Source: an uncultured bacterium
Lineage (GTDB): Bacteria > Chloroflexota > Dehalococcoidia > Lucifugimonadales > UBA3495
Assembly: GCA_963997925.1 (NCBI GenBank)
Contig: CAXEOX010000001.1
Coordinates: forward strand, 16,536-80,535
Reading direction: 5' to 3'
DNA length: 64,000 bases
The notes under the pieces were generated by a model that was given only the letters and a program-made list of their open reading frames with translations, did no database searches and was not told where the DNA came from. Positions within the stretch are counted from its first letter, which is position 1. The number at the start of each line of letters is the position of its first letter. The translations under genes and the position numbers were made by a program. Positions 2,505 through 39,671 of this stretch are shown piece after piece.

Positions 2505-3908
2505 ATGAGCGACCCCCCTTTGCATTACCTGACTATCACCGAAGTCGCGTCCTTGATCCGCGACAAGCAGGTTTCCCCGGTGGAAGTGACCGAAGCGATG
2601 CTCCAGCGAATCGATGCGCTGGACGGTCGATTCCAGAGCTACGCAACGGTGATGGCGGACCAAGCGATGGATTCGGCCAGAAAAGCGGAGATTGAGATTT
2701 CCGCCGGAGGCTACTTGGGTCCTCTGCACGGCGTGCCCATCGCGGTGAAGGATCTTTGCTTCACTAAAGGCGTCCGCACCATGGGCGGTACACCGGTGCT
2801 ATCCAATCACGTTCCAGATTTCGACGCTACGGTTATCTCCAAGCTGGCGGCTGCGGGCTCGGTCCTGCTGGGCAAACTGAACTTGACCGAGGGAGCGATG
2901 GCCGGATACCACCCTGACTTCCCGATCCCGGTCAACCCGTGGAACCCGGAGTATTGGACCGGCGTATCGTCCAGCGGCTCCGGAGTAGCCACCGCCGCCG
3001 GGCTTTGCTTTGGATCTCTGGGCAGCGACACCGGCGGCTCCATACGGTTTCCCGCGGCTTCCTGCGGTATCGTCGGTATCAAGCCCACATGGGGATTGGT
3101 CAGCCGCTACGGAGTTCTGGCCCTGGCCGAGTCCATGGACCACGTCGGCCCCATGACCCGCAGCGCCGCCGACGCCGGTATCATGCTTCAAGCCATCGCC
3201 AGCCACGACCCCAACGACGCAACCTCTCTGCCCAGACCTGCACTCGACTTGTTGGCGGGACTGGGAGAGGGTGTAAGTGGCATTCGCATCGGCCTGGACC
3301 TTCGGTATATCGAGGACGACGTTGACGGCGAATTATCAGCGTCGGTGTTGGCGGCCATCCGAGTGATGGAAGTGCTGGGCGCGGAGATTGTCGAGGTGAG
3401 CATGCCCGAGACCCGCGAATATACCGGAGCTTGGGCGGTGCTATGTTCCGCCGAAGCCGCCGAAGCCCATCGCGCGACCTATCCGTCACGCCGGGACGAG
3501 TACGGCCCCTGGTTCCGGGGCTGGCTGGACAAGGGCTCTGAAGTAACCGGCTCGGATTATGCCCAGGCCAACAACGTGCGCGCGGAGTGCAACGGTCTGC
3601 TTCGAAGCGTGTTTGAAGATATAGATGTGCTGGCGTGTCCCTCAACAATCGCCCCACCGGGCCGGGTAACCCCGGAGCAATTGCGCGCTCCCATGGGAGG
3701 CGAAGACGACCTGAAGTGGGGCCGCTTCACCGTTCCATTCGATTTCAACGGCGCTCCAACCATTTCCCTGCCCTGCGGCCAGAACAGCGACGGTCTGCCT
3801 CTAAGCCTCCAGTTCGTAGGAAAGCACCTATCCGAGGCGTTGCTGGTCAGATTAGGCCACGCCTATGAACAAGCAACAGACTGGCGCAACATGAGACCGC
3901 CAATGTGA
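2505..3908 (+). CDS. Amidase (amidase-signature family, GatA-like)
   Basis: The catalytic Lys lies in PIAVKDLCFTKG. The Gly/Ser-rich AS block is GVSSSGSGVATAAGLCFGSLGSDTGGSIRFPAASCG. Confidence 0.85.
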   Translation: MSDPPLHYLTITEVASLIRDKQVSPVEVTEAMLQRIDALDGRFQSYATVMADQAMDSARKAEIEISAGGYLGPLHGVPIAVKDLCFTKGVRTMGGTPVLSNHVPDFDATVISKLAAAGSVLLGKLNLTEGAMAGYHPDFPIPVNPWNPEYWTGVSSSGSGVATAAGLCFGSLGSDTGGSIRFPAASCGIVGIKPTWGLVSRYGVLALAESMDHVGPMTRSAADAGIMLQAIASHDPNDATSLPRPALDLLAGLGEGVSGIRIGLDLRYIEDDVDGELSASVLAAIRVMEVLGAEIVEVSMPETREYTGAWAVLCSAEAAEAHRATYPSRRDEYGPWFRGWLDKGSEVTGSDYAQANNVRAECNGLLRSVFEDIDVLACPSTIAPPGRVTPEQLRAPMGGEDDLKWGRFTVPFDFNGAPTISLPCGQNSDGLPLSLQFVGKHLSEALLVRLGHAYEQATDWRNMRPPM

Positions 3909-3994: not shown

Positions 3995-4015
3995 CCCCTC
4001 CTTGGTAAGGAGGGG
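3995..4015. terminator. Hairpin between convergent genes (candidate bidirectional terminator / REP-like)
   Basis: CCCCTCC-TTGGTAA-GGAGGGG, a 7-bp perfect stem, lies in the 115-nt spacer between the amidase (+) and the deiodinase-like gene (-). There is no clear U-tract. Confidence 0.35.
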
Positions 4016-4023
4016 ACTGTGTC

Positions 4024-4767
4024 TTAGATCTGTATCCGGCCCGGCCTAGGCGGTTGTTGAGCGCCGCGCTTTTGGCTGTTCTCCCAGTCGGACAATGCCT
4101 GAGGTCCGGCCTTTTCCAGCACCTCATGATGCTTCGCCAAGTCGCTCCACCGGTACCCAACCATCTCGGCGTAGAAGGGTGCCATCCGCAGACCTTCCCT
4201 GCGCTGCTTGCGAGCGTCTAGGATGTAGTCCAAGACCTTCTCGATGGTCGGCGGATCCGTCCAGTCCGACCGGAATAGCACCTTGCCACCCCGGTCGATA
4301 ACGTAGGTCATGTTGGGGAGCGCACCGTAAAGCTCATGCCCTGTGCCCTCCACATCATCCACCAGGATTGGGCGCTGCACGTCCAGCACCTTCTTGAGCG
4401 AACGGGCATGATCCAGCTTCTGCTCCAAGGTCTGATGCGCGGGGTAGTTCTCTCCGGGATGGGCTTCCCTCGTATAGACGAAGATGAACTTGAACCCCAG
4501 ATCGGCGTACTTCTTGGCCATGGGCTCCAGCGCTGGCGCCGCCAGCGTGCAATAGGGTCAAGTTAATGAGCCGAACTCAATAACTACGTCTCCCTCTTTA
4601 CAGTAGTCCCGTAGCTGAACCTTGTCTCCGCTGTCCAAGGCAACGGCGGTGAAGTCGGGCGCCGGAGAGCCGACGGGCAGCTTGGAGCGGAAAGCCATGA
4701 AATCCGACTCCCCTCCCATGAATGCTTCGTAGTTGTAAAGAGCGACTGCGGTTTCCGGTGTAGCCAT
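4024..4767 (-). CDS. Thioredoxin-fold, iodothyronine-deiodinase-like candidate selenoprotein (in-frame TGA at 4560..4558 read as Sec)
   Basis: Track ORFs 4558..4767 and 4024..4521 share one frame and are separated only by a single TGA. Read-through gives ...VVIEFGSLT-U-PYCTLAAPALEPMAKKYADLGFKFIFVYTREAHPGE...PILVDDVEGTGHELYGALPNMTYVIDRGGKVLF.... The RBS GGAGGGAGGA precedes the ATG at 4767. Confidence 0.7.
4531..4547 (-). promoter_or_regulatory. SECIS-like mRNA hairpin 10 nt downstream of the in-frame UGA
   Basis: The minus-strand RNA reads UGA-CCCUAUUGCA-CGCUGGC-GGC-GCCAGCG. This is a 7-bp perfect G+C stem with a G-containing apical loop, about 17-20 nt from the UGA. Confidence 0.45.
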
Positions 4768-4845
4768 TGGATCCTCCCTCCTACTTCCGAGATGTTATGT
4801 CAATCCAATTAGGTCTTTGATGAATCTGTTTTCCACCTGTCAGAA

Positions 4846-7044
4846 TCATTCAGACTCTGAATCGTTGGTATCTTCATCGCCGGTATCGCCATCGCCGGTA
4901 ACTTGGTCATCAGCTTCTAAATCTTCAGTGCCGGCATCGTCGATTTCTTCGTCAACAATCTCTTCGCCGTCGATCTCTTCTTCATCAGGCTCTACTTCGA
5001 GCACCGGTGGGCGGGACTGGCTTGGGTCTCGCCAAAATTCCACCAACCGGGAAACTTCCCCATCGTCCACGAAGGTTCCTTGGACTCGCCGGGGTTGGGG
5101 CGACTGATTTTCCAGCAGGAGCATATCGCCCCTCCCCAGAAGATCTTCGGCCCCAGACACATCCAGAATCACTCTGGAGTCGGTCTGGGACGCCACAGTA
5201 AAAGCGATGCGGGTAGCGATGTTGGCTTTGAGCAAGCCGGTAACCACGTCCACGGTCGGCCTCTGGGTAGCCAGCATCAAGTGGATACCTGTTGCCCGGC
5301 CCATCTGAGCCAGCCTCACCAGATTCGCTTCGGCCTCTCGGCCACCGGCCAGCATGAGTTCCGCCAATTCATCAACCACCAACACCACGTAGGGCATCCT
5401 TCTCTCGGCGGTGGCGTTGTAGCCGGCGATGTTGCGCGCCCCGGCCTCCGCCAACCTGGTGTACCGTTGCTGCATCAAACTCAACAAGCCCTTAAGCGAT
5501 TCGGTGAATCCTTTGAATTCCTGAACGGTGGGGGCAGCTAGGTGCGGCAGCCCATCGAAGGGCGTCAGTTCCACTCCCTTGGGGTCTACCATCAATAGAC
5601 GCAATTGATCCGGCGATTTCGACACCAGCAGAGAGGCCACGATGCTGTTGAGGCATACACTTTTGCCCGTGCCCGTGGCTCCGGCGATGAGCAGATGAGG
5701 CAGTCCTGCCAGGTCCAACACCTCCGGCTCGCCAGCGATGTCCAAGCCGATCGCGATGGGCAAGCCTCCCTTGGCGGCACAGTCAACAAAGGCTTGGGAT
5801 TCTACCACCTCTTTCAACCCAACTCTCCTCGGTGTGGGAGAGGGAACCTCCAGCCCCACCAACGACTCACCCGGGATGGTGGGTTGGATCCTGATTGTAG
5901 GAGTCTTGAGCGCAAGGGCCAGGTCGTTCTGCCGAGCCAAGATGGCTTGGACCCTAACCCGGCTCCTCCCGCCAACGCCGCCGTCTTGCTGTTCATCCGA
6001 GCCGCCCTTGTCGTCAGTCAACCAGCCCGGGTCGAGACCGAAACGATTGAGCCGGGGTCCGGACTGGATGCTGGCGTCGGGAACCGTTACGTTCGCGCCA
6101 TAGCTGGCCAGAGTGTCCTCGATGAGACGGGCGGTGGCTATCAGGGCCTCTTCGTTGGACTCGACCGGTTCCGGAGCAGTCAGCAGGTCTGCGGCAGGCA
6201 ACAGCCAAGGCGGATTCGAGACCGAGCTAGGGTCGACAGGCTCGGCATATAGAGATAACTCTTCGCTGACAAAGCCATCGATGGCGGATATCTCGCTCCT
6301 GGTATCCGGCTGGACTTCCGGAACCACCTCCTGTTGGTCGGGCGGATTATCCTGGACGGGTTTATCTTCAGCTACCGCCGTTGCCGTCGATTCTACGGCA
6401 GGCGGCTCAGGGGTTGGCACAGGAGTCGATGCTGGGATGCTTGGCTGCTCAGTGTCTTTTGTCCGAGACTTTAGCCTTTGCGCTATGGCTCCCCTGAACC
6501 GTTTCAGAAGCGGGTGTTCGGCCACGAACCGCGCACTTTGGCCTACCTGCTCGAAGGCCCGAGCGTACAAGGGGCCAACCCTCCTTGGAAACACCACCAC
6601 CGGCATCAAGACGGCTATAATCACCAACTTGGCGATGCCCAACGACAGGGGTGCACCGCCCAAGATTGTTCCCCACCGGCCGCCCAGACTGACATCTGCG
6701 AAGATCCCGAAGCCGGGGTGGAAGAAGGAGAGGACACCGACGGCGATGGCGGCCCCGGCGGCAGCGGTCACCCACCATTGCCACTGACGTGCAAAGAACC
6801 TGATGTGGTAGCGCAAGCCAAACACCAGAGCACCAAGCCACAGCCCCACCGGCGCCCAGCCGTAGGCTAGGGACTCCAGAGCCCATGTCCGAGCGGACGG
6901 GCTCAAGAACATGGTGATGGCCAAGGCTAACACGGCGGTGACTAGGACCAACCCATCTATGACAAACGCTATCCGCACCGGGCTGGACTTACCGCCGGAC
7001 CGCGAACGAGAGGAACGGCGTCTGCCTTCAGGGTTACGTGCCAC
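4846..7044 (-). CDS. ftsK: DNA translocase FtsK/SpoIIIE (no recognisable gamma domain; poly-acidic C-terminal tail)
   Basis: N-terminal TM helices are followed by a Pro/Glu-rich linker. The motor domain has Walker A LLIAGATGTGKSVCLNS, Walker B VVLVVDELAELM and LATQRPTVDVVTG. The start is GTG with the RBS AGGAGG 5 nt upstream. Confidence 0.9.
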   Translation of the reverse strand: MARNPEGRRRSSRSRSGGKSSPVRIAFVIDGLVLVTAVLALAITMFLSPSARTWALESLAYGWAPVGLWLGALVFGLRYHIRFFARQWQWWVTAAAGAAIAVGVLSFFHPGFGIFADVSLGGRWGTILGGAPLSLGIAKLVIIAVLMPVVVFPRRVGPLYARAFEQVGQSARFVAEHPLLKRFRGAIAQRLKSRTKDTEQPSIPASTPVPTPEPPAVESTATAVAEDKPVQDNPPDQQEVVPEVQPDTRSEISAIDGFVSEELSLYAEPVDPSSVSNPPWLLPAADLLTAPEPVESNEEALIATARLIEDTLASYGANVTVPDASIQSGPRLNRFGLDPGWLTDDKGGSDEQQDGGVGGRSRVRVQAILARQNDLALALKTPTIRIQPTIPGESLVGLEVPSPTPRRVGLKEVVESQAFVDCAAKGGLPIAIGLDIAGEPEVLDLAGLPHLLIAGATGTGKSVCLNSIVASLLVSKSPDQLRLLMVDPKGVELTPFDGLPHLAAPTVQEFKGFTESLKGLLSLMQQRYTRLAEAGARNIAGYNATAERRMPYVVLVVDELAELMLAGGREAEANLVRLAQMGRATGIHLMLATQRPTVDVVTGLLKANIATRIAFTVASQTDSRVILDVSGAEDLLGRGDMLLLENQSPQPRRVQGTFVDDGEVSRLVEFWRDPSQSRPPVLEVEPDEEEIDGEEIVDEEIDDAGTEDLEADDQVTGDGDTGDEDTNDSESE

Positions 7045-9550: not shown

Positions 9551-10510
9551 ATGCCCGAACCCAAGCTGACCCTAGCGGTGGAACACTACGACCGCCACAT
9601 CCCATTGCTGGACCGAACGGTGAAGGCCGAAGGTATCCAGCTTGATGTCCGGCATGTCACCGTGGAGTCGGGCCGCCACGAGCGGATGTTGGACGGTTTG
9701 GAGTGGGACTGCGCCGAGCTCTCCCTGTCGTCCTACATCATGGCAATCACCCGGGGCGCGGCGCTGACCGCCATTCCAGTGTTCCCGCGCCGCCTGTTCA
9801 GCCAGTCACAGATGTACGTCAACACCGCCGCCGGTATCAGCGGGCCCCAAGACCTCATCGGCAAAAGGGTCGGTCTGCGCAGTTTCCAGACCACACTATC
9901 GGTGCTGGCCAAGGGCGACTTGCAGCACGAATACGGCATCCCCTTGGACCAGGTTAATTGGATCACCAGCACCGATGAACCCGTATCGTTCCAGGCACCG
10001 GCTGGGGTTTCCATCGAACGGGCTCCCCAAGGGAACAATATAGAAACGATGCTGGTACAAGGCGAGATCGATGCCTACATGGTGCCCCGGATGCCCGTTC
10101 CCTTCGTTGCCGGAGCGCCCGAGGTAGGGCGTCTTTTTCAGGACTCCCGGTCCGAAGAGATTTCCTACTTCCAGCGCAACGGTTTCTACCCCATCATGCA
10201 TCTGGTCGCCATCAAACAGGAAGTCGCCAACCAGCATCCCGAGGTCACTGCCGCTCTGTTCACCGCCTTTGAGCAAGCCAAAGAAACCGCCTTCCGGTTC
10301 TACGACGACCCAAACTGGAGCAGCATGGCCTGGGCGCCCCAACTGGCCCAAGAAGAGCAGCTAATCATGGGCGGCGACACTTGGCCAAATGGGTTGGAAA
10401 AGAATCGAAGCAATCTGGAGCGGTTCATCCAGTACGAACTCGACCAGGGGCTGATCGACGGCCACCTTGAGGTTGAAGACCTGTTCCACGCCAGCAGCCA
10501 CCATCTGTAA
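9551..10510 (+). CDS. PhtD-like protein (4,5-dihydroxyphthalate decarboxylase / NMT1-type periplasmic-binding-protein fold, cytoplasmic)
   Basis: LTLAVEHYDRHIPLLDRTVKAEGIQLD...EWDCAELSLSSYIMA...AIPVFPRRLFSQSQMYVN...DLIGKRVGLRSFQTT matches the PhtD-type family as I remember it. There is no signal peptide, and the RBS is AAGGAG. Confidence 0.6.
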   Translation: MPEPKLTLAVEHYDRHIPLLDRTVKAEGIQLDVRHVTVESGRHERMLDGLEWDCAELSLSSYIMAITRGAALTAIPVFPRRLFSQSQMYVNTAAGISGPQDLIGKRVGLRSFQTTLSVLAKGDLQHEYGIPLDQVNWITSTDEPVSFQAPAGVSIERAPQGNNIETMLVQGEIDAYMVPRMPVPFVAGAPEVGRLFQDSRSEEISYFQRNGFYPIMHLVAIKQEVANQHPEVTAALFTAFEQAKETAFRFYDDPNWSSMAWAPQLAQEEQLIMGGDTWPNGLEKNRSNLERFIQYELDQGLIDGHLEVEDLFHASSHHL

Positions 10511-10572: not shown

Positions 10573-11115
10573 ATGCAAGACGACGTACTCCGCCAAGTGG
10601 AGCAGTTCCTATATCGGGAGGCCCGGCTGCTGGACTCCCGGCAGTTTCGCCGGTGGATAGACTTGCTGGCCGACGACCTTCGCTACTGGATCCCCATGCG
10701 CTCCAACCGATACTCCGCCGCCAGCAAGTCCATATCCATCCTAGACGGCTCCCGCTATGAGGAAGACGACCTATCCAAAGAGAGCGATCAGGCGTTCATG
10801 GACGAGGACAAAGGCTCCCTGCGGCGGCGGGTAGATCGGTTGGACACCGGCATGGCCTGGGCGGAAGACCCCCCGTCCCGGACCCGCCATTTGATCTCTA
10901 ATGTGGAAGTAGAGCCGGGAGAGAGAGAGTCGGAGGTAAAGGTCTACTCAAATTTCATCATGTACCGCAGCAGAGGAGAAACCGAGGAGGATTTCTACGT
11001 AGGCAGCCGGGAGGACGTGCTGCGCAACGTAGATGGCAGTTGGCAGCTAGCCAGCCGGAAGATTGTCTTCGAACAGAACGTTCTCTCGGCGAAGAACCTA
11101 AGCAACTTCTTCTAA
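10573..11115 (+). CDS. Aromatic-ring-hydroxylating dioxygenase beta-subunit-like protein (NTF2/SnoaL fold)
   Basis: The segment VEQFLYREARLLDSRQFRRWIDLLADDLRYWIPMRSN is the canonical N-terminal block of RHD small subunits. No Rieske alpha subunit is present in the window. Confidence 0.75.
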   Translation: MQDDVLRQVEQFLYREARLLDSRQFRRWIDLLADDLRYWIPMRSNRYSAASKSISILDGSRYEEDDLSKESDQAFMDEDKGSLRRRVDRLDTGMAWAEDPPSRTRHLISNVEVEPGERESEVKVYSNFIMYRSRGETEEDFYVGSREDVLRNVDGSWQLASRKIVFEQNVLSAKNLSNFF

Positions 11116-26417: not shown

Positions 26418-26966
26418 ATGTATTCTGAGATTCTAGTGCCGTTAGACGGGTCTCACTTATCGGAGCAAGTACTGCCTTACGTGCGAATGCTGGCAGGCTC
26501 GTTCAGACTGCCGGTCCATCTGTTCCAGCCGTACAGCCCGGTCTCCGAGGAACTAGCTGACCCGCTTCACGGCCGGTATCGGGACGCCGTGTCCGAGTCC
26601 TACCGAAACGAGGCTACGGATTATCTTCACACCATTGGTCAGACGATGGAAGAGATTGGCGTGGCGGTTAGATACTCGGTACGGGAAGGGAGACCCGCAC
26701 ATCTGATTGTCGATGAGGCGGAGAAGAATCCGGGCGCGTTGATCGCCATGTCGACCCACGGTCGTTCCGGTGTCAGCCGGTGGCTGCTGGGCAGCATCAC
26801 CAACAAGGTCCTGCATGCCACCAACGCCCCGCTGCTTGTGGTACGGGCCAGCGAGGGAGAGGACACCACTCCTCCTTCTGAATTGACTTCCATCATCGTA
26901 CAGTTGGACGGCTCCACATTGGCCGAGGAGAGCCTTTCCCACGTCACCGACCTCGCAAGAAAATGA
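26418..26966 (+). CDS. Universal stress protein (USP domain 1 plus the first strand of domain 2)
   Basis: ILVPLDGS...ALIAMSTHGRSGVSRWLLGSITNKVLHATNAPLLVV is followed by a second IIVQLDGSTLAE... start that breaks off at the TGA. Confidence 0.7.
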   Translation: MYSEILVPLDGSHLSEQVLPYVRMLAGSFRLPVHLFQPYSPVSEELADPLHGRYRDAVSESYRNEATDYLHTIGQTMEEIGVAVRYSVREGRPAHLIVDEAEKNPGALIAMSTHGRSGVSRWLLGSITNKVLHATNAPLLVVRASEGEDTTPPSELTSIIVQLDGSTLAEESLSHVTDLARK

Positions 26967-27262
26967 ACCTAAAGGTGATTTTGGTGCGAGTGGAGAGCGA
27001 CGGCGAAGAGGTAAGCAACAATTACCTCCATGCGATTCGGGACAGGTTGTCAGATGAGGGAGTGGCATCGGTGGAAAAGCGGGTGCTACACGGTCATCCC
27101 GCAGTCACCATAGTTGACCTAGCCCATGAGACTGCGAAAAGCCTGGTAACTATGACGACTCACGTCCGCTCCGGGATAGGCCGGTGGGTCTTGGGCAGCG
27201 TAACGGATAGGGTCGTACGGCATTCAGGAGACCCGGTGTTGGTGATTCGCTCTTCGGATTAA
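26963..27262 (+). CDS. Universal stress protein fragment (remainder of USP domain 2; ATGA overlap, -1 frame)
   Basis: LKVILVRV...LVTMTTHVRSGIGRWVLGSVTDRVVRHSGDPVLVI. No RBS precedes its ATG, so it is probably the frameshifted continuation of 26418..26966. Confidence 0.6.
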   Translation: MNLKVILVRVESDGEEVSNNYLHAIRDRLSDEGVASVEKRVLHGHPAVTIVDLAHETAKSLVTMTTHVRSGIGRWVLGSVTDRVVRHSGDPVLVIRSSD

Positions 27263-37663: not shown

Positions 37664-38038
37664 TTATCGTTGATGCGCCTCTAAGAACACTTCGGGAACG
37701 GGTAGCTCCCCCCACTTGTCTCCCGACTTGGCCGATTTAGTTACGTAGCCCTCACGTTCCAGTTCCCTAGCGCCGACGATGATGGCGATCCGTTCCTGGA
37801 GTTCGGCTGGATCCCAGGGTTTCTTGATATAGTCAGTAACCCCCGCCTGCAGGCACCGGCGCTCCGATTCGATGTCTATCCTGGCGGTCAAGATAATCAC
37901 CGGGATATGCTCGGTCTCTGGATTGCTTTTCAGCTTGTGCAGCACTTGGAACCCATCCATGATGGGCATGTTCAGATCCATCGGAGCGCAGTTCTTAGAG
38001 CTATTCGCTGGCGTGTACTCCGTCTTCGTTCGTCGCAT
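37664..38038 (-). pseudogene. Response-regulator receiver domain lacking its N-terminal third (truncated remnant or orphan fragment)
   Basis: It begins MRRTKTEYTPANSSKNCAP and then runs directly into MDLNMPIMDGFQVLHKL...PVIILTA...DYIKKPW. These are the phospho-Asp strand and the T and K motifs, but the beta1-alpha1-beta2 region with the DD acidic pocket is absent. Confidence 0.5.
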
Positions 38039-38250
38039 GATATTAATTCCTTGACCCGTTGACTCTCAGTCCCAGACTTCTTTACATCGCCAGGCTTCCG
38101 AGCATTGACGGAGAGAGGGGGAATCCTCTGCCTGTATCCAAGCCGGAATCCCAGACGTTGCCGCGTCACTGATTTTCCACTCAACAGCAATCCCCATATT
38201 TCCGCGTCGATACACTCCTCTGGACACCCCACCCAAACTCCGCACGCCGG

Positions 38251-38259
38251 TGGTATAAT
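38251..38259 (+). promoter_or_regulatory. Candidate extended -10 promoter element (TGGTATAAT) upstream of the capA-like gene
   Basis: TG-G-TATAAT at 38251-38259 lies 62 nt before the ATG at 38322. No good -35 hexamer is present. Confidence 0.35.
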
Positions 38260-38321
38260 CGGCCCACCTGACGCCTGAGACTAGTCCCGGCGCCATCCCA
38301 GTGTCCATCTTAGGAGGCAAC

Positions 38322-39671
38322 ATGATTTACAACGCTGAGAAAAGAGACATCTCCATCGCCGTTGGCGGCGACGCGATGATTACCAGGCGGATGCAGTCCT
38401 TCACCGAGCCCAAATTCCTCGAGCTGATCGAGATATTGAGGGCTGCCGACGTTTCGGTGGTGAATCTGGAGATGCTGTTCCACGACTACGAAAGCAGTTG
38501 GCAATGGAGCGGGGCGACCTACACGAGGTCCGATCCCCGTAACTTGGAAGAACTGAAGTGGATGGGTATAAACGCGGTCACCACCGCCAACAACCACTCC
38601 TTCGACTTTTCCGAGGGCGGGTTCTTGACCACTCTGGAACACTGCAAAGAGGTGGACCTTCCCCAAGCCGGCGGCGGCCGAGACATAGACGAAGCCCGCG
38701 CCCCGGCCTACGTTGACTCTCCCATGGGACGCCTGGCCATCATGTCCGCCACCAGCACCTTCAGCGAGCAGTCCAGGGCGGGCGGCGGCAGGCCCGACTT
38801 CCCCGGCAGGCCTGGCGTGAACGCGCTGCGCCACGACCTGACCCACCACGTGGAGCGGGATGTGTTCGAGTCCCTGCTCAAAGCCAATCAGGAGTTGGGA
38901 TACACCGACATCGAGGAAGCCACCCGAGCCTTCGGCTTCAGAGGCAACAGTGATGCCGCCGACCACTCCACCGAAGTCGAATTCATGGAGAAAAAATTCA
39001 TCCTGTCGGAAGAGTTCGCCGTCAAAACTTCGCCCAACCAGGACGACCTGGCCGGAATGGCGAACTGGATCCGTGGCGCTCAGAAGCTGTCCGACTGGTC
39101 GATCTACGCCACCCATTGCCATGAAAGCGGATCCACCGGCGAGTTCCACGGCAGCACCCGGGTTTCGCCCCCCGATTTTCTGGTGGACTTTGCCCGCTGG
39201 ACTATCGACCAAGGCTGCGCCATGTTCGTCGGCCACGGACCCCACTTCCTGCGCGGCATCGAGATATACAAGGGCAAGCCCATCTTCTACAGCCTGGGCA
39301 ACTTCATCTTCCAGAACGAAAGCGTCCTGCGGCTTCCCAGCGAAGCCTATCGCCGCTTCGGCCTGGGCCACGAACAGACCCCGGGCGACTACCTGGACAC
39401 CCGCTCCGGAGGCGGCACCCGAGCCTTCGCCGGCGACCCCATCTTCTGGCAGAGCGTGGTCGCTGTATGTAACTACGCAGGCGGCGAACTGAAGGAAATC
39501 GTCCTTCACCCCATCGACATGGGGCACGGACGTCCCATCGCCCAACGAGGCCGCCCAGTCATAGCGGAAGGCGACATGGCCCAGCGAACCCTAGCCTGGC
39601 TCCGTGACGTCTCCAAACCCTACGGCACCGAAATTACGATCGAAGGTGAAGTAGGAATGATTCGCCTGTAA
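38322..39671 (+). CDS. CapA-family (PGA_cap) metallophosphatase-like protein
   Basis: IAVGGDAMITRR...AADVSVVNLEMLF...GINAVTTANNHSFDFSEGGFLTTLE...AGGGRDIDEA. The ATG at 38322 lies 4 nt after TAGGAGG. Confidence 0.75.
   Translation: MIYNAEKRDISIAVGGDAMITRRMQSFTEPKFLELIEILRAADVSVVNLEMLFHDYESSWQWSGATYTRSDPRNLEELKWMGINAVTTANNHSFDFSEGGFLTTLEHCKEVDLPQAGGGRDIDEARAPAYVDSPMGRLAIMSATSTFSEQSRAGGGRPDFPGRPGVNALRHDLTHHVERDVFESLLKANQELGYTDIEEATRAFGFRGNSDAADHSTEVEFMEKKFILSEEFAVKTSPNQDDLAGMANWIRGAQKLSDWSIYATHCHESGSTGEFHGSTRVSPPDFLVDFARWTIDQGCAMFVGHGPHFLRGIEIYKGKPIFYSLGNFIFQNESVLRLPSEAYRRFGLGHEQTPGDYLDTRSGGGTRAFAGDPIFWQSVVAVCNYAGGELKEIVLHPIDMGHGRPIAQRGRPVIAEGDMAQRTLAWLRDVSKPYGTEITIEGEVGMIRL

Follow-up and report, generated by a model that had tools for sequence, protein, structure and literature searches.

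Here we describe a gene in a 64,000-nt stretch of DNA (hereafter the window; 58% GC), taken from contig CAXEOX010000001.1 of an uncultured member of the Dehalococcoidia, in which a single in-frame UGA is predicted to be decoded as selenocysteine (Sec) and the product resembles the iodothyronine deiodinases. The gene lies on the minus strand, where a single frame of 247 sense codons runs from an ATG at 4767..4765 to a TAA at 4026..4024, and its sole in-frame interruption is the TGA at codon 70 (4560..4558). The open reading frame (ORF) lister breaks the locus into two pieces, 4558..4767 and 4024..4521. The 12 codons from the TGA to the internal ATG (4521, Met83) are open (PYCTLAAPALEP), and translation through the interruption gives VVIEFGSLT-U-PYCTLAAPALEP-M83, with the motif FGSLT-U-PYC and the peptide EFGSLT-U-PYCTLAAPALEPMAK across the putative Sec70.

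A previous reading of this DNA from its letters alone (the sequence-only reading) had proposed the split frame, the single TGA and a 247-codon read-through product, and its coordinates were all confirmed. The open gap of 12 codons also stood; the internal Met, which had been counted as residue 82, is residue 83. The ribosome-binding site that had been seen before the ATG at 4767 is present as well (Table 1).

Table 1. Features of the deiodinase-like locus and its immediate 3' side, in window coordinates
Feature	Position	Strand	Basis or remark
Predicted selenoprotein gene	4024..4767	-	246 standard residues plus Sec70, then TAA; homologs align over residues 1-247 in 80 loci
Shine-Dalgarno-like, purine-rich GGAGGGAGGA	4772..4781	-	4 nt upstream of the ATG; direct reading of the sequence
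In-frame UGA, predicted Sec70, first residue of the U-P-Y-C redox dyad	4558..4560	-	Column conservation
Cys73 codon, putative resolving residue of the UxxC dyad	4549..4551	-	Invariant, 77/77
Candidate bacterial SECIS hairpin CGCUGGC-GGC-GCCAGCG	4531..4547	-	Minimum free energy fold, covariation, synonymous-site restriction
Thioredoxin/peroxiredoxin-like catalytic domain, about residues 25-175	4243..4695	-	Pfam, Dio3 match, AlphaFold2 model of homolog P0010, Foldseek
Helical C-terminal extension, about 72 aa, RRREGxRLAPFYAExVGYRW...GLxRAGPQAV	4027..4242	-	Conserved across alignments; helices in the AlphaFold2 model
Internal ATG (Met83)	4519..4521	-	Start wrongly used by gene callers for a 165-aa ORF
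Palindromic 9-bp G+C-rich hairpin	3995..4015		Possible bidirectional terminator; consensus match only

Conservation of the in-frame UGA

A scan of species-representative genomes gave at least 588 confirmed related loci, and the best 80 were kept for comparison. These come from Dehalococcoidia, Thermomicrobiales, Chloroflexia, Ktedonobacteria, Anaerolineae, Acidobacteriota, Verrucomicrobiota, Deltaproteobacteria, Alphaproteobacteria, Actinomycetota, Armatimonadota, Eiseniibacteriota and Rokubacteria, and the 79 that cover the UGA site represent at least 10 phyla. In every one of the 79 this column reads TGA, with conserved EFGSxT before it and PxC after it, and the same TGA recurs across hundreds of independent marine assemblies. 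The part of the protein that precedes it, including a YNY motif, is conserved across phyla. The sequence-only reading had assigned the UGA to the column of a catalytic Cys or Sec and had called for orthologs to be inspected there; the column holds TGC (Cys), not a gap, in the rare full-length homologs P0010 (locus L081) and P0012 (locus L082). The 'W' that the record of a further homolog, P0011, shows at this position is actually a TGA translated under another code table.

Both sides of the UGA are under purifying constraint of the same order. Compared with the ortholog L001, from a Dehalococcoidia metagenome-assembled genome (MAG) of Station ALOHA that is 91% identical, the ratio of nonsynonymous to synonymous change (pN/pS) comes to 0.08 over codons 1-69 and 0.07 over codons 83-247, with pS at about 0.5, and the stretch between the UGA and Met83 has no nonsynonymous change at all (11 codons counted). 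At the Met83 column, 31 of 77 family sequences have Met, 24 have Leu and 20 have Ile; a gene of its own with its start there is thus not conserved. In every case the two halves are adjacent and in frame, and they never occur as separate genes. In the rest of the window TGA serves as a normal stop: it ends 14 of the 60 ORFs, among them amidase genes and a GMC oxidoreductase gene whose products match their Pfam profiles to the last position. These comparisons show that the locus behaves as one gene, in which the UGA is the counterpart of a Cys codon.

A protein search returned 569 relatives, mostly of 165-167 aa, which span only the C-terminal 67% of the query; gene callers have therefore cut them at the same place. 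The closest relatives are marine Dehalococcoidia known from Tara, JGI and ENA data, such as MAZ64001.1, MCH2518696.1 and HIB11860.1, in keeping with the Dehalococcoidia-related lineage that the sequence-only reading had considered. Database entries for the clade are essentially all 165-167-aa 'hypothetical proteins' that start after the UGA (also MBI2089471.1). One public variant of the clade is present on 209 contigs, and one entry, P0016 (MBI2358887.1, 239 aa), is apparently a mis-called fusion that skips the active-site segment.

A candidate SECIS hairpin within the coding sequence

Beginning 10 nt past the UGA, the mRNA is predicted to form the hairpin CGCUGGC-GGC-GCCAGCG (4547..4531), whose stem of 7 bp is perfect and which lies within the minimum free energy (MFE) fold. 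In its minimal form, the selenocysteine insertion sequence (SECIS) of E. coli is a 17-nt upper stem-loop located 11 nt from the UGA, which would match the geometry in the window closely. Published criteria for bacterial SECIS elements (bSECIS) ask for a loop of 3-9 nt, a stem of 4-16 bp, a G within the first two loop positions, a UGA-to-loop distance of 16-37 nt and an MFE of at most -7.5 kcal/mol (PMC13188914). The window hairpin agrees with each of these, having a GGC loop, a 7-bp stem, a UGA-to-loop spacing of 17 nt and an energy of -11.3 kcal/mol as a stand-alone structure; a strict perfect-stem enumerator found the full set of properties in 56 of the 80 loci.

Using an alignment of 77 sequences, from 6 nt before the TGA through 42 nt after it, we found that 87.8% of the cells in the hairpin form standard pairs. 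Pair 20-36 is C-G in 29 sequences, G-C in 29 and G-U in 7, and pair 22-34 is C-G in 41 and A-U in 27. The covariation score is 0.31, compared with 0.14 for shuffled alignments, and none of 500 shuffles attains it; sliding the 3' partners by 1-3 columns lowers the pairing to 26-53%. Compensatory changes in the hairpin sometimes alter the protein, as in the change of Leu75 to Met that is coupled with a change of Ala79 to Ser, which indicates that the RNA structure constrains the peptide.

Synonymous sites, examined at the third codon positions of invariant residues, probe the hairpin independently of the protein sequence, and they too are restricted. Pro78 is encoded by CCA or CCG in all 73 of 73 cases and never by CCC or CCT, which keeps a U-A or U-G pair, and CCA makes up 68% of the codons at this position as against 11% in the remainder of these genes (Fisher p = 2e-27). 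Likewise, the Ala76 codon is GCG in 74 of 79 loci, compared with a background of 40% (p = 4e-23), preserving the first G of the apical loop. Codon usage is normal at Pro71, which lies just outside the stem. These substitution patterns show that selection maintains an RNA hairpin where a bSECIS canonically lies, and the 7-bp hairpin picked out in the sequence-only reading is thereby supported both by the published model and by covariation.

Protein family, fold and active site

Scored with U replaced by C, the window protein has T4_deiodinase (PF00837) as its top Pfam match, at 51.8 bits against a gathering score of 27 over residues 25-165; AhpC-TSA (47 bits; threshold 26) and Redoxin (40.3 bits; threshold 26.6) also pass. 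Among PDB sequences, mouse Dio3 matches best (4TR3; E = 7.8e-10 over residues 16-166), followed by Dio2 (9H48), both ahead of generic thioredoxin-family proteins. Both searches bear out the deiodinase-family motifs noticed in the sequence-only reading.

The catalytic domain carries the deiodinase-type motifs FGSxT-U-P, Y-x-x-EAHPGE, PxH, LVDD and YGxLPNM. Residue conservation was counted over 77 family sequences. In FGSxT-U-P, F65, G66, S67, U70 and P71 show little or no variation, and the U70-x-x-C73 dyad, which had been pointed out as UxxC from the letters alone, is invariant (77/77). The proton relay described for Dio2 comprises Ser127, Thr129, Tyr157, Glu160, His162 and His182 (PMC11592359); its counterparts in the family are Ser67 (77/77), Thr69 (75/77), Tyr98 (77/77), Glu101 (77/77), His103 (77/77) and His111 (63/77). 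This conservation shows that the predicted catalytic motifs are of the deiodinase type. Other invariant residues are specific to the family: Arg132, His144, Pro151-Asn152-Met153 and Trp169-Thr170-Asp171. Set beside the peroxiredoxin active-site motif P-x3-T/S-x2-C, Ser67 stands at -3 from Sec, and position -7 is Ile, Val or Leu, not Pro. Hydropathy profiles show the predicted protein to be soluble, with no hydrophobic N-terminal segment in any family member (maximum 19-aa hydropathy before the motif 1.26; 0.40 in the window protein).

As a stand-in for the window protein we used an AlphaFold2 model of the Cys homolog P0010, which is 60% identical. The model has a mean predicted local distance difference test (pLDDT) score of 73.8, with the core above 90, and consists of a thioredoxin/peroxiredoxin-like fold followed by C-terminal helices. 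The helices, at pLDDT 47-75, make up the C-terminal extension of about 72 aa, for which no Pfam match was obtained. In a Foldseek search of the PDB the first matches are 3U5R, DsbE, ResA and 2YWI; Dio3 ranks 20 and Dio2 ranks 31, with similar E-values.

Searching P0010 against 1.84 billion representative sequences exhaustively gave 1705 proteins at E ≤ 1e-3, of which 610 reach E ≤ 1e-10. Among the best 150 matches are many full-length bacterial Cys proteins with FGSxT-C-P and YTREAHPGE, in which the +3 Cys is often missing. The Sec clade is therefore nested in a larger bacterial deiodinase-like superfamily.

Comparison with characterised proteins

With the animal deiodinases Dio1-3 the window protein shares the thioredoxin/peroxiredoxin-like fold, Sec in FGSxT-U-P, the Y-x-x-E-A-H-P motif and the Ser/Thr/Tyr/Glu/His/His relay (4TR3/4TR4, 9H48), at a sequence identity of about 20-25%. 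It differs from them in several respects. The N-terminal membrane anchor is absent; loop-D is 9 residues shorter and reads PGENYP in place of PSDGW, with the loop-D Trp and Asp gone; the substrate-clamp Arg275 of Dio3 is replaced by Met153 in the family (76/77); and Arg132 aligns with a Cys in Dio3. Furthermore, there is a Cys at +3 (U-P-Y-C) where animal Dio has U-P-P-F, a helical extension is added at the C-terminus, and the candidate SECIS is of the bacterial in-frame type, whereas that of Dio is of the 3'-UTR type.

The TlpA/ResA/DsbE proteins (3GL3, 4NMU, 1SU9) are the best structural neighbours, with TM-scores of up to 0.86 normalised to the target, and their helix 1, too, has a C/U-x-x-C dyad at its N-terminus. 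They are exported or membrane-anchored CxxC proteins, whereas the window protein is predicted to be cytoplasmic and to contain Sec, and it has the EAHPGE and proton-relay motifs that they lack; no export signal was found in it. Their sequence E-values are far weaker (1e-4 to 1e-2). The top Foldseek matches 3U5R (SMc02350) and 2YWI, of similar size and about 22% identical, are uncharacterised thioredoxin-like Cys proteins and supply no functional information.

NCBIfam model NF038285, 'deiodinase family protein' (deiodinase_rel), gives a partial match of residues 32-167 to profile positions 178-324 of 347, at 83.3 bits against a cut-off of 250, and it has a long N-terminal region that is not present in the window protein. 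Judged from its profile, NF038285 is a different subfamily.

Interpretation and alternative explanations

We consider it highly probable, at about 0.9, that the locus is one gene for a soluble, cytoplasmic selenoprotein of 247 residues belonging to the 'deiodinase-like proteins', in which UGA70 would be decoded with the help of a SECIS and the product would be a thioredoxin/peroxiredoxin-fold redox enzyme working through Sec70 and Cys73. In the proposed mechanism, the 17-nt hairpin inside the sequence coding for the active-site helix would act as a bacterial SECIS, recruiting SelB-GTP-Sec-tRNA(Sec) to the ribosome, and UGA70 would be read as Sec rather than terminating translation; SelB-dependent decoding is proposed from the conservation of the RNA element and from the mechanism established for bacteria. 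Sec70 would be the attacking nucleophile, Cys73 would resolve the oxidised selenium as a Se-S bond (selenenylsulfide), and a cellular thiol reductant would then reduce this bond and recycle the enzyme, with the deiodinase-type hydrogen-bond and proton relay (Ser67, Thr69, Tyr98, Glu101, His103, His111) serving the active site. This redox cycle is suggested by the invariant U-x-x-C dyad together with homology to thioredoxin, peroxiredoxin and Dio chemistry.

Several observations weigh against this reading. Rfam at its gathering thresholds gave no match, and the 81-nt region as a whole folds no better than its shuffles (z = -0.66). In the strict enumeration, 24 of the 80 loci are weaker than the cut-off of -7.5 kcal/mol, many of them at -7.0 to -7.2. 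Five alphaproteobacterial or unclassified loci (L055, L056, L070, L071, L075) have their hairpin at another position: they are without the standard hairpin at 17 nt and possess instead a stem-loop about 30 nt after the UGA, such as GCGAUGG-AUG-CCAUCGC, which suggests that within one protein family the SECIS has changed its position. One of the two Cys forms, L081, retains the hairpin and the other has a degraded one; going by these two forms only, the predicted hairpin is not strictly Sec-specific. As to the fold, the search with the predicted model does not tell deiodinases from TlpA/ResA/DsbE or peroxiredoxin proteins, and since fold alone is not diagnostic the deiodinase assignment is based on sequence motifs. 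Finally, neither the 64-kb window nor the flanking DNA of the first 60 related loci to be scanned yielded a selA, selB, selD or tRNA-Sec gene, and Pfam annotation of essentially all window ORFs likewise gave no selA, selB or selD, so that the organism's Sec-decoding capacity is something we infer. BSepDB lists Dehalococcoidia MAGs with 46 and 49 selenoproteins, which documents Sec decoding for the class, not for the source genome.

Other possible explanations are that the locus is a pseudogene, that the TGA is an assembly or sequencing error, or that two genes of 69 and 165 aa lie here. Gene callers do divide the locus, and public records hold the 165-aa part only; against this stand the recurrence of the TGA in all 79 loci and in hundreds of independent assemblies, pN/pS of about 0.07-0.08 on both sides of it, the lack of conservation of Met83, the halves that are always adjacent and in frame, and an active-site motif, FGSxT-U-PxC, that straddles the TGA. 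We regard these possibilities, including the assembly error and the separate genes that the sequence-only reading had itself raised, as effectively refuted. Selenium-free translation of the UGA as a standard amino acid (Trp, Gly or Cys), through read-through or reassignment, or the use of an alternative genetic code by the genome, would be in line with the JGI calls that give W at this codon (P0011, P0026) and with the missing Sec machinery in the window. It is nevertheless very improbable: TGA ends 14 of 60 window ORFs, Pfam-complete genes included, the 79 loci are spread over many phyla whose code is the standard one, the residue at the aligned position of homologs is Cys, the usual counterpart of Sec, and the conserved hairpin with its loop G at the canonical distance is a specific signature of SelB-dependent decoding. 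The constant TGA column, the selection on the flanking codons and the ordinary use of TGA as a stop together rule out, in practice, sequencing error, pseudogene, split gene and alternative code.

For the selenoprotein that we favour, the reaction is a separate matter. A role as a peroxidase or general thiol-disulfide (selenenylsulfide) oxidoreductase in oxidative-stress defence, like that of the peroxiredoxin- and thioredoxin-like UxxC selenoproteins, has somewhat less than an even chance in our estimation. The AhpC-TSA and Redoxin scores (47 and 40 bits) pass their thresholds, the top structural neighbours are DsbE, ResA, TlpA-type and Bcp/peroxiredoxin proteins, the UxxC dyad is invariant, and a redox function was proposed by the authors who discovered the family (PMC1088965). 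The family-specific invariant residues and the conserved 72-aa extension, however, point to a specific rather than a generic substrate, the residue aligned to Dio3 Arg275 is Met, and, unlike ResA and TlpA, the protein has no export signal. The other named possibility is a corrinoid-independent reductive dehalogenase that deiodinates or debrominates halogenated phenolics, with Sec70 abstracting the halogen and Cys73 resolving Se-X. The deiodinases are the closest characterised relatives by sequence, the complete Dio proton relay is retained, Sec is kept in 79 of 79 loci, which suggests a chemistry in which Se far outperforms S, and the host is a marine member of the Dehalococcoidia. We still judge this function unlikely: the Dio substrate-contact elements are missing (Arg275 replaced by Met153 in 76/77, a shorter loop-D without Trp and Asp), UxxC is typical of thiol-disulfide oxidoreductases and does not occur in animal Dio, the gene neighbourhood is neither halogen-related nor conserved in any other way, the family is found mostly in taxa of soil and groundwater without a known link to organohalide metabolism, and our literature search found no experimental report or characterisation of bacterial deiodinase homologs. 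The wider conjecture, that the Sec-obligate clade, spread widely among Chloroflexota and further bacteria of soil, groundwater and the sea, consists of corrinoid-independent, selenium-dependent dehalogenases of natural iodo- and bromo-phenolics and is the prokaryotic functional ancestor of the thyroid-hormone deiodinases, seems to us quite unlikely. The probability that remains after the redox and dehalogenation readings goes to some other, specific substrate.

Relation to published selenoproteins

Bacterial deiodinase homologs with Sec and with Cys, and with a bacterial SECIS, were reported from Sargasso Sea data by Zhang, Fomenko & Gladyshev in 2005 (PMC1088965), who entered four Sec sequences as 'Deiodinase-like protein, Pfam00837' and suggested that the function is a redox one; the Global Ocean Sampling survey counted 22 Sec forms and 21 Cys homologs (PMC2398784). 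The statement in the sequence-only reading that such proteins had been listed in ocean selenoproteome surveys was thus correct. Reviews of 2022 and 2026 describe the family as having a UxxC motif and no known function (PMC9312934, PMC13188914). Its published representatives include MBO99264.1, MFL2763324.1 and AACY01143874. The window protein resembles this published family in PF00837, UxxC, a SECIS just past the UGA, the existence of Sec and Cys forms, and occurrence in marine metagenomes; no difference between them came to light, and the clade probably corresponds to it, the two having been matched by motif, Pfam family and habitat, not by alignment. A literature search for SAR202 together with selenocysteine gave nothing relevant.

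The gene is therefore a correctly detected member of an already catalogued selenoprotein family, not a new one. It raises no new question, since the literature has recorded both the family and its lack of a known function from 2005 on. What goes beyond the published accounts is incremental: the near-exceptionless presence of Sec, the taxonomic breadth (at least 588 loci), the conservation of the Dio relay and the synonymous-site signature of the SECIS. Also, the 72-aa C-terminal extension is not described in the published accounts of the family that we found.

The practical value lies in annotation. This gene and hundreds of near-identical orthologs from marine Dehalococcoidia have entered the public records as hypothetical proteins cut down to 165 aa, and the clade is without an NCBIfam model, with the result that the active-site half, Sec included, is missing from protein databases. 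The finding also places a predicted Sec-dependent enzyme in an abundant lineage of marine Dehalococcoidia, and a clade with near-constant Sec and a deiodinase relay offers a reasonable starting point for work on the function of bacterial deiodinase homologs.

Genomic context and other features of the window

The gene is preceded on the same strand by an FtsK/SpoIIIE gene (4846..7044) and followed by a convergent amidase gene (2505..3908). The palindromic hairpin between the amidase and deiodinase-like genes may be a bidirectional terminator, but its T-tract is poor on both strands. Clustering of the neighbourhoods of the 80 loci revealed no universal partner, an ABC ATPase being found in 16, and the gene is treated as stand-alone. 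In one Chloroflexia clade (L029, L031, L038, L040, L041, L042, L049, L052) it comes after two genes of its own strand, one for an FtsX-type permease of about 1040 aa and one for an ABC ATPase, and a 385-aa protein with a C-terminal AhpC/Redoxin domain is encoded about 1 kb downstream; the arrangement is confined to this clade. The ABC ATPase, the Redoxin-domain protein and the FtsX permease were considered as functional evidence and rejected.

A screen for other TGA-interrupted genes in the window yielded no second selenoprotein. The one candidate, the TGA at 38068..38066, was rejected as belonging to a truncated response regulator: the minus-strand ORF 37664..38038 matches only positions 45-110 of Response_reg, with the N-terminal phospho-acceptor part missing, and is preceded by the in-frame TGA and an 85-aa ORF that has no Pfam match, so that the whole (37664..38323, minus strand) looks like a truncated or decayed gene.

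The remaining gene content comprises at least 5 amidohydrolases, 2 amidases, 2 luciferase-like monooxygenases, 4 major facilitator superfamily (MFS) transporters and 3 glyoxalase-fold proteins, as well as a nitroreductase, an EutA-like protein and a 759-aa protein resembling phosphoenolpyruvate carboxykinase; no tRNA genes were found in the window. Together with the GC content, this fits a marine Dehalococcoidia genome of the SAR202 type. A ring-hydroxylating beta-subunit/SnoaL-like gene stands alone at 10573..11115, with no Rieske alpha subunit where one might be expected, and the 319-aa ORF upstream of it (9551..10510, plus strand) has a sub-threshold likeness to NMT1/THI5-like proteins (20.1 against 20.5 bits). 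At 26418..27262 on the plus strand, two universal stress protein (Usp) ORFs overlap by 4 nt and the second matches Usp positions 71-141 only, which points to a frameshift within a tandem-Usp gene, be it genuine or a sequencing artefact.

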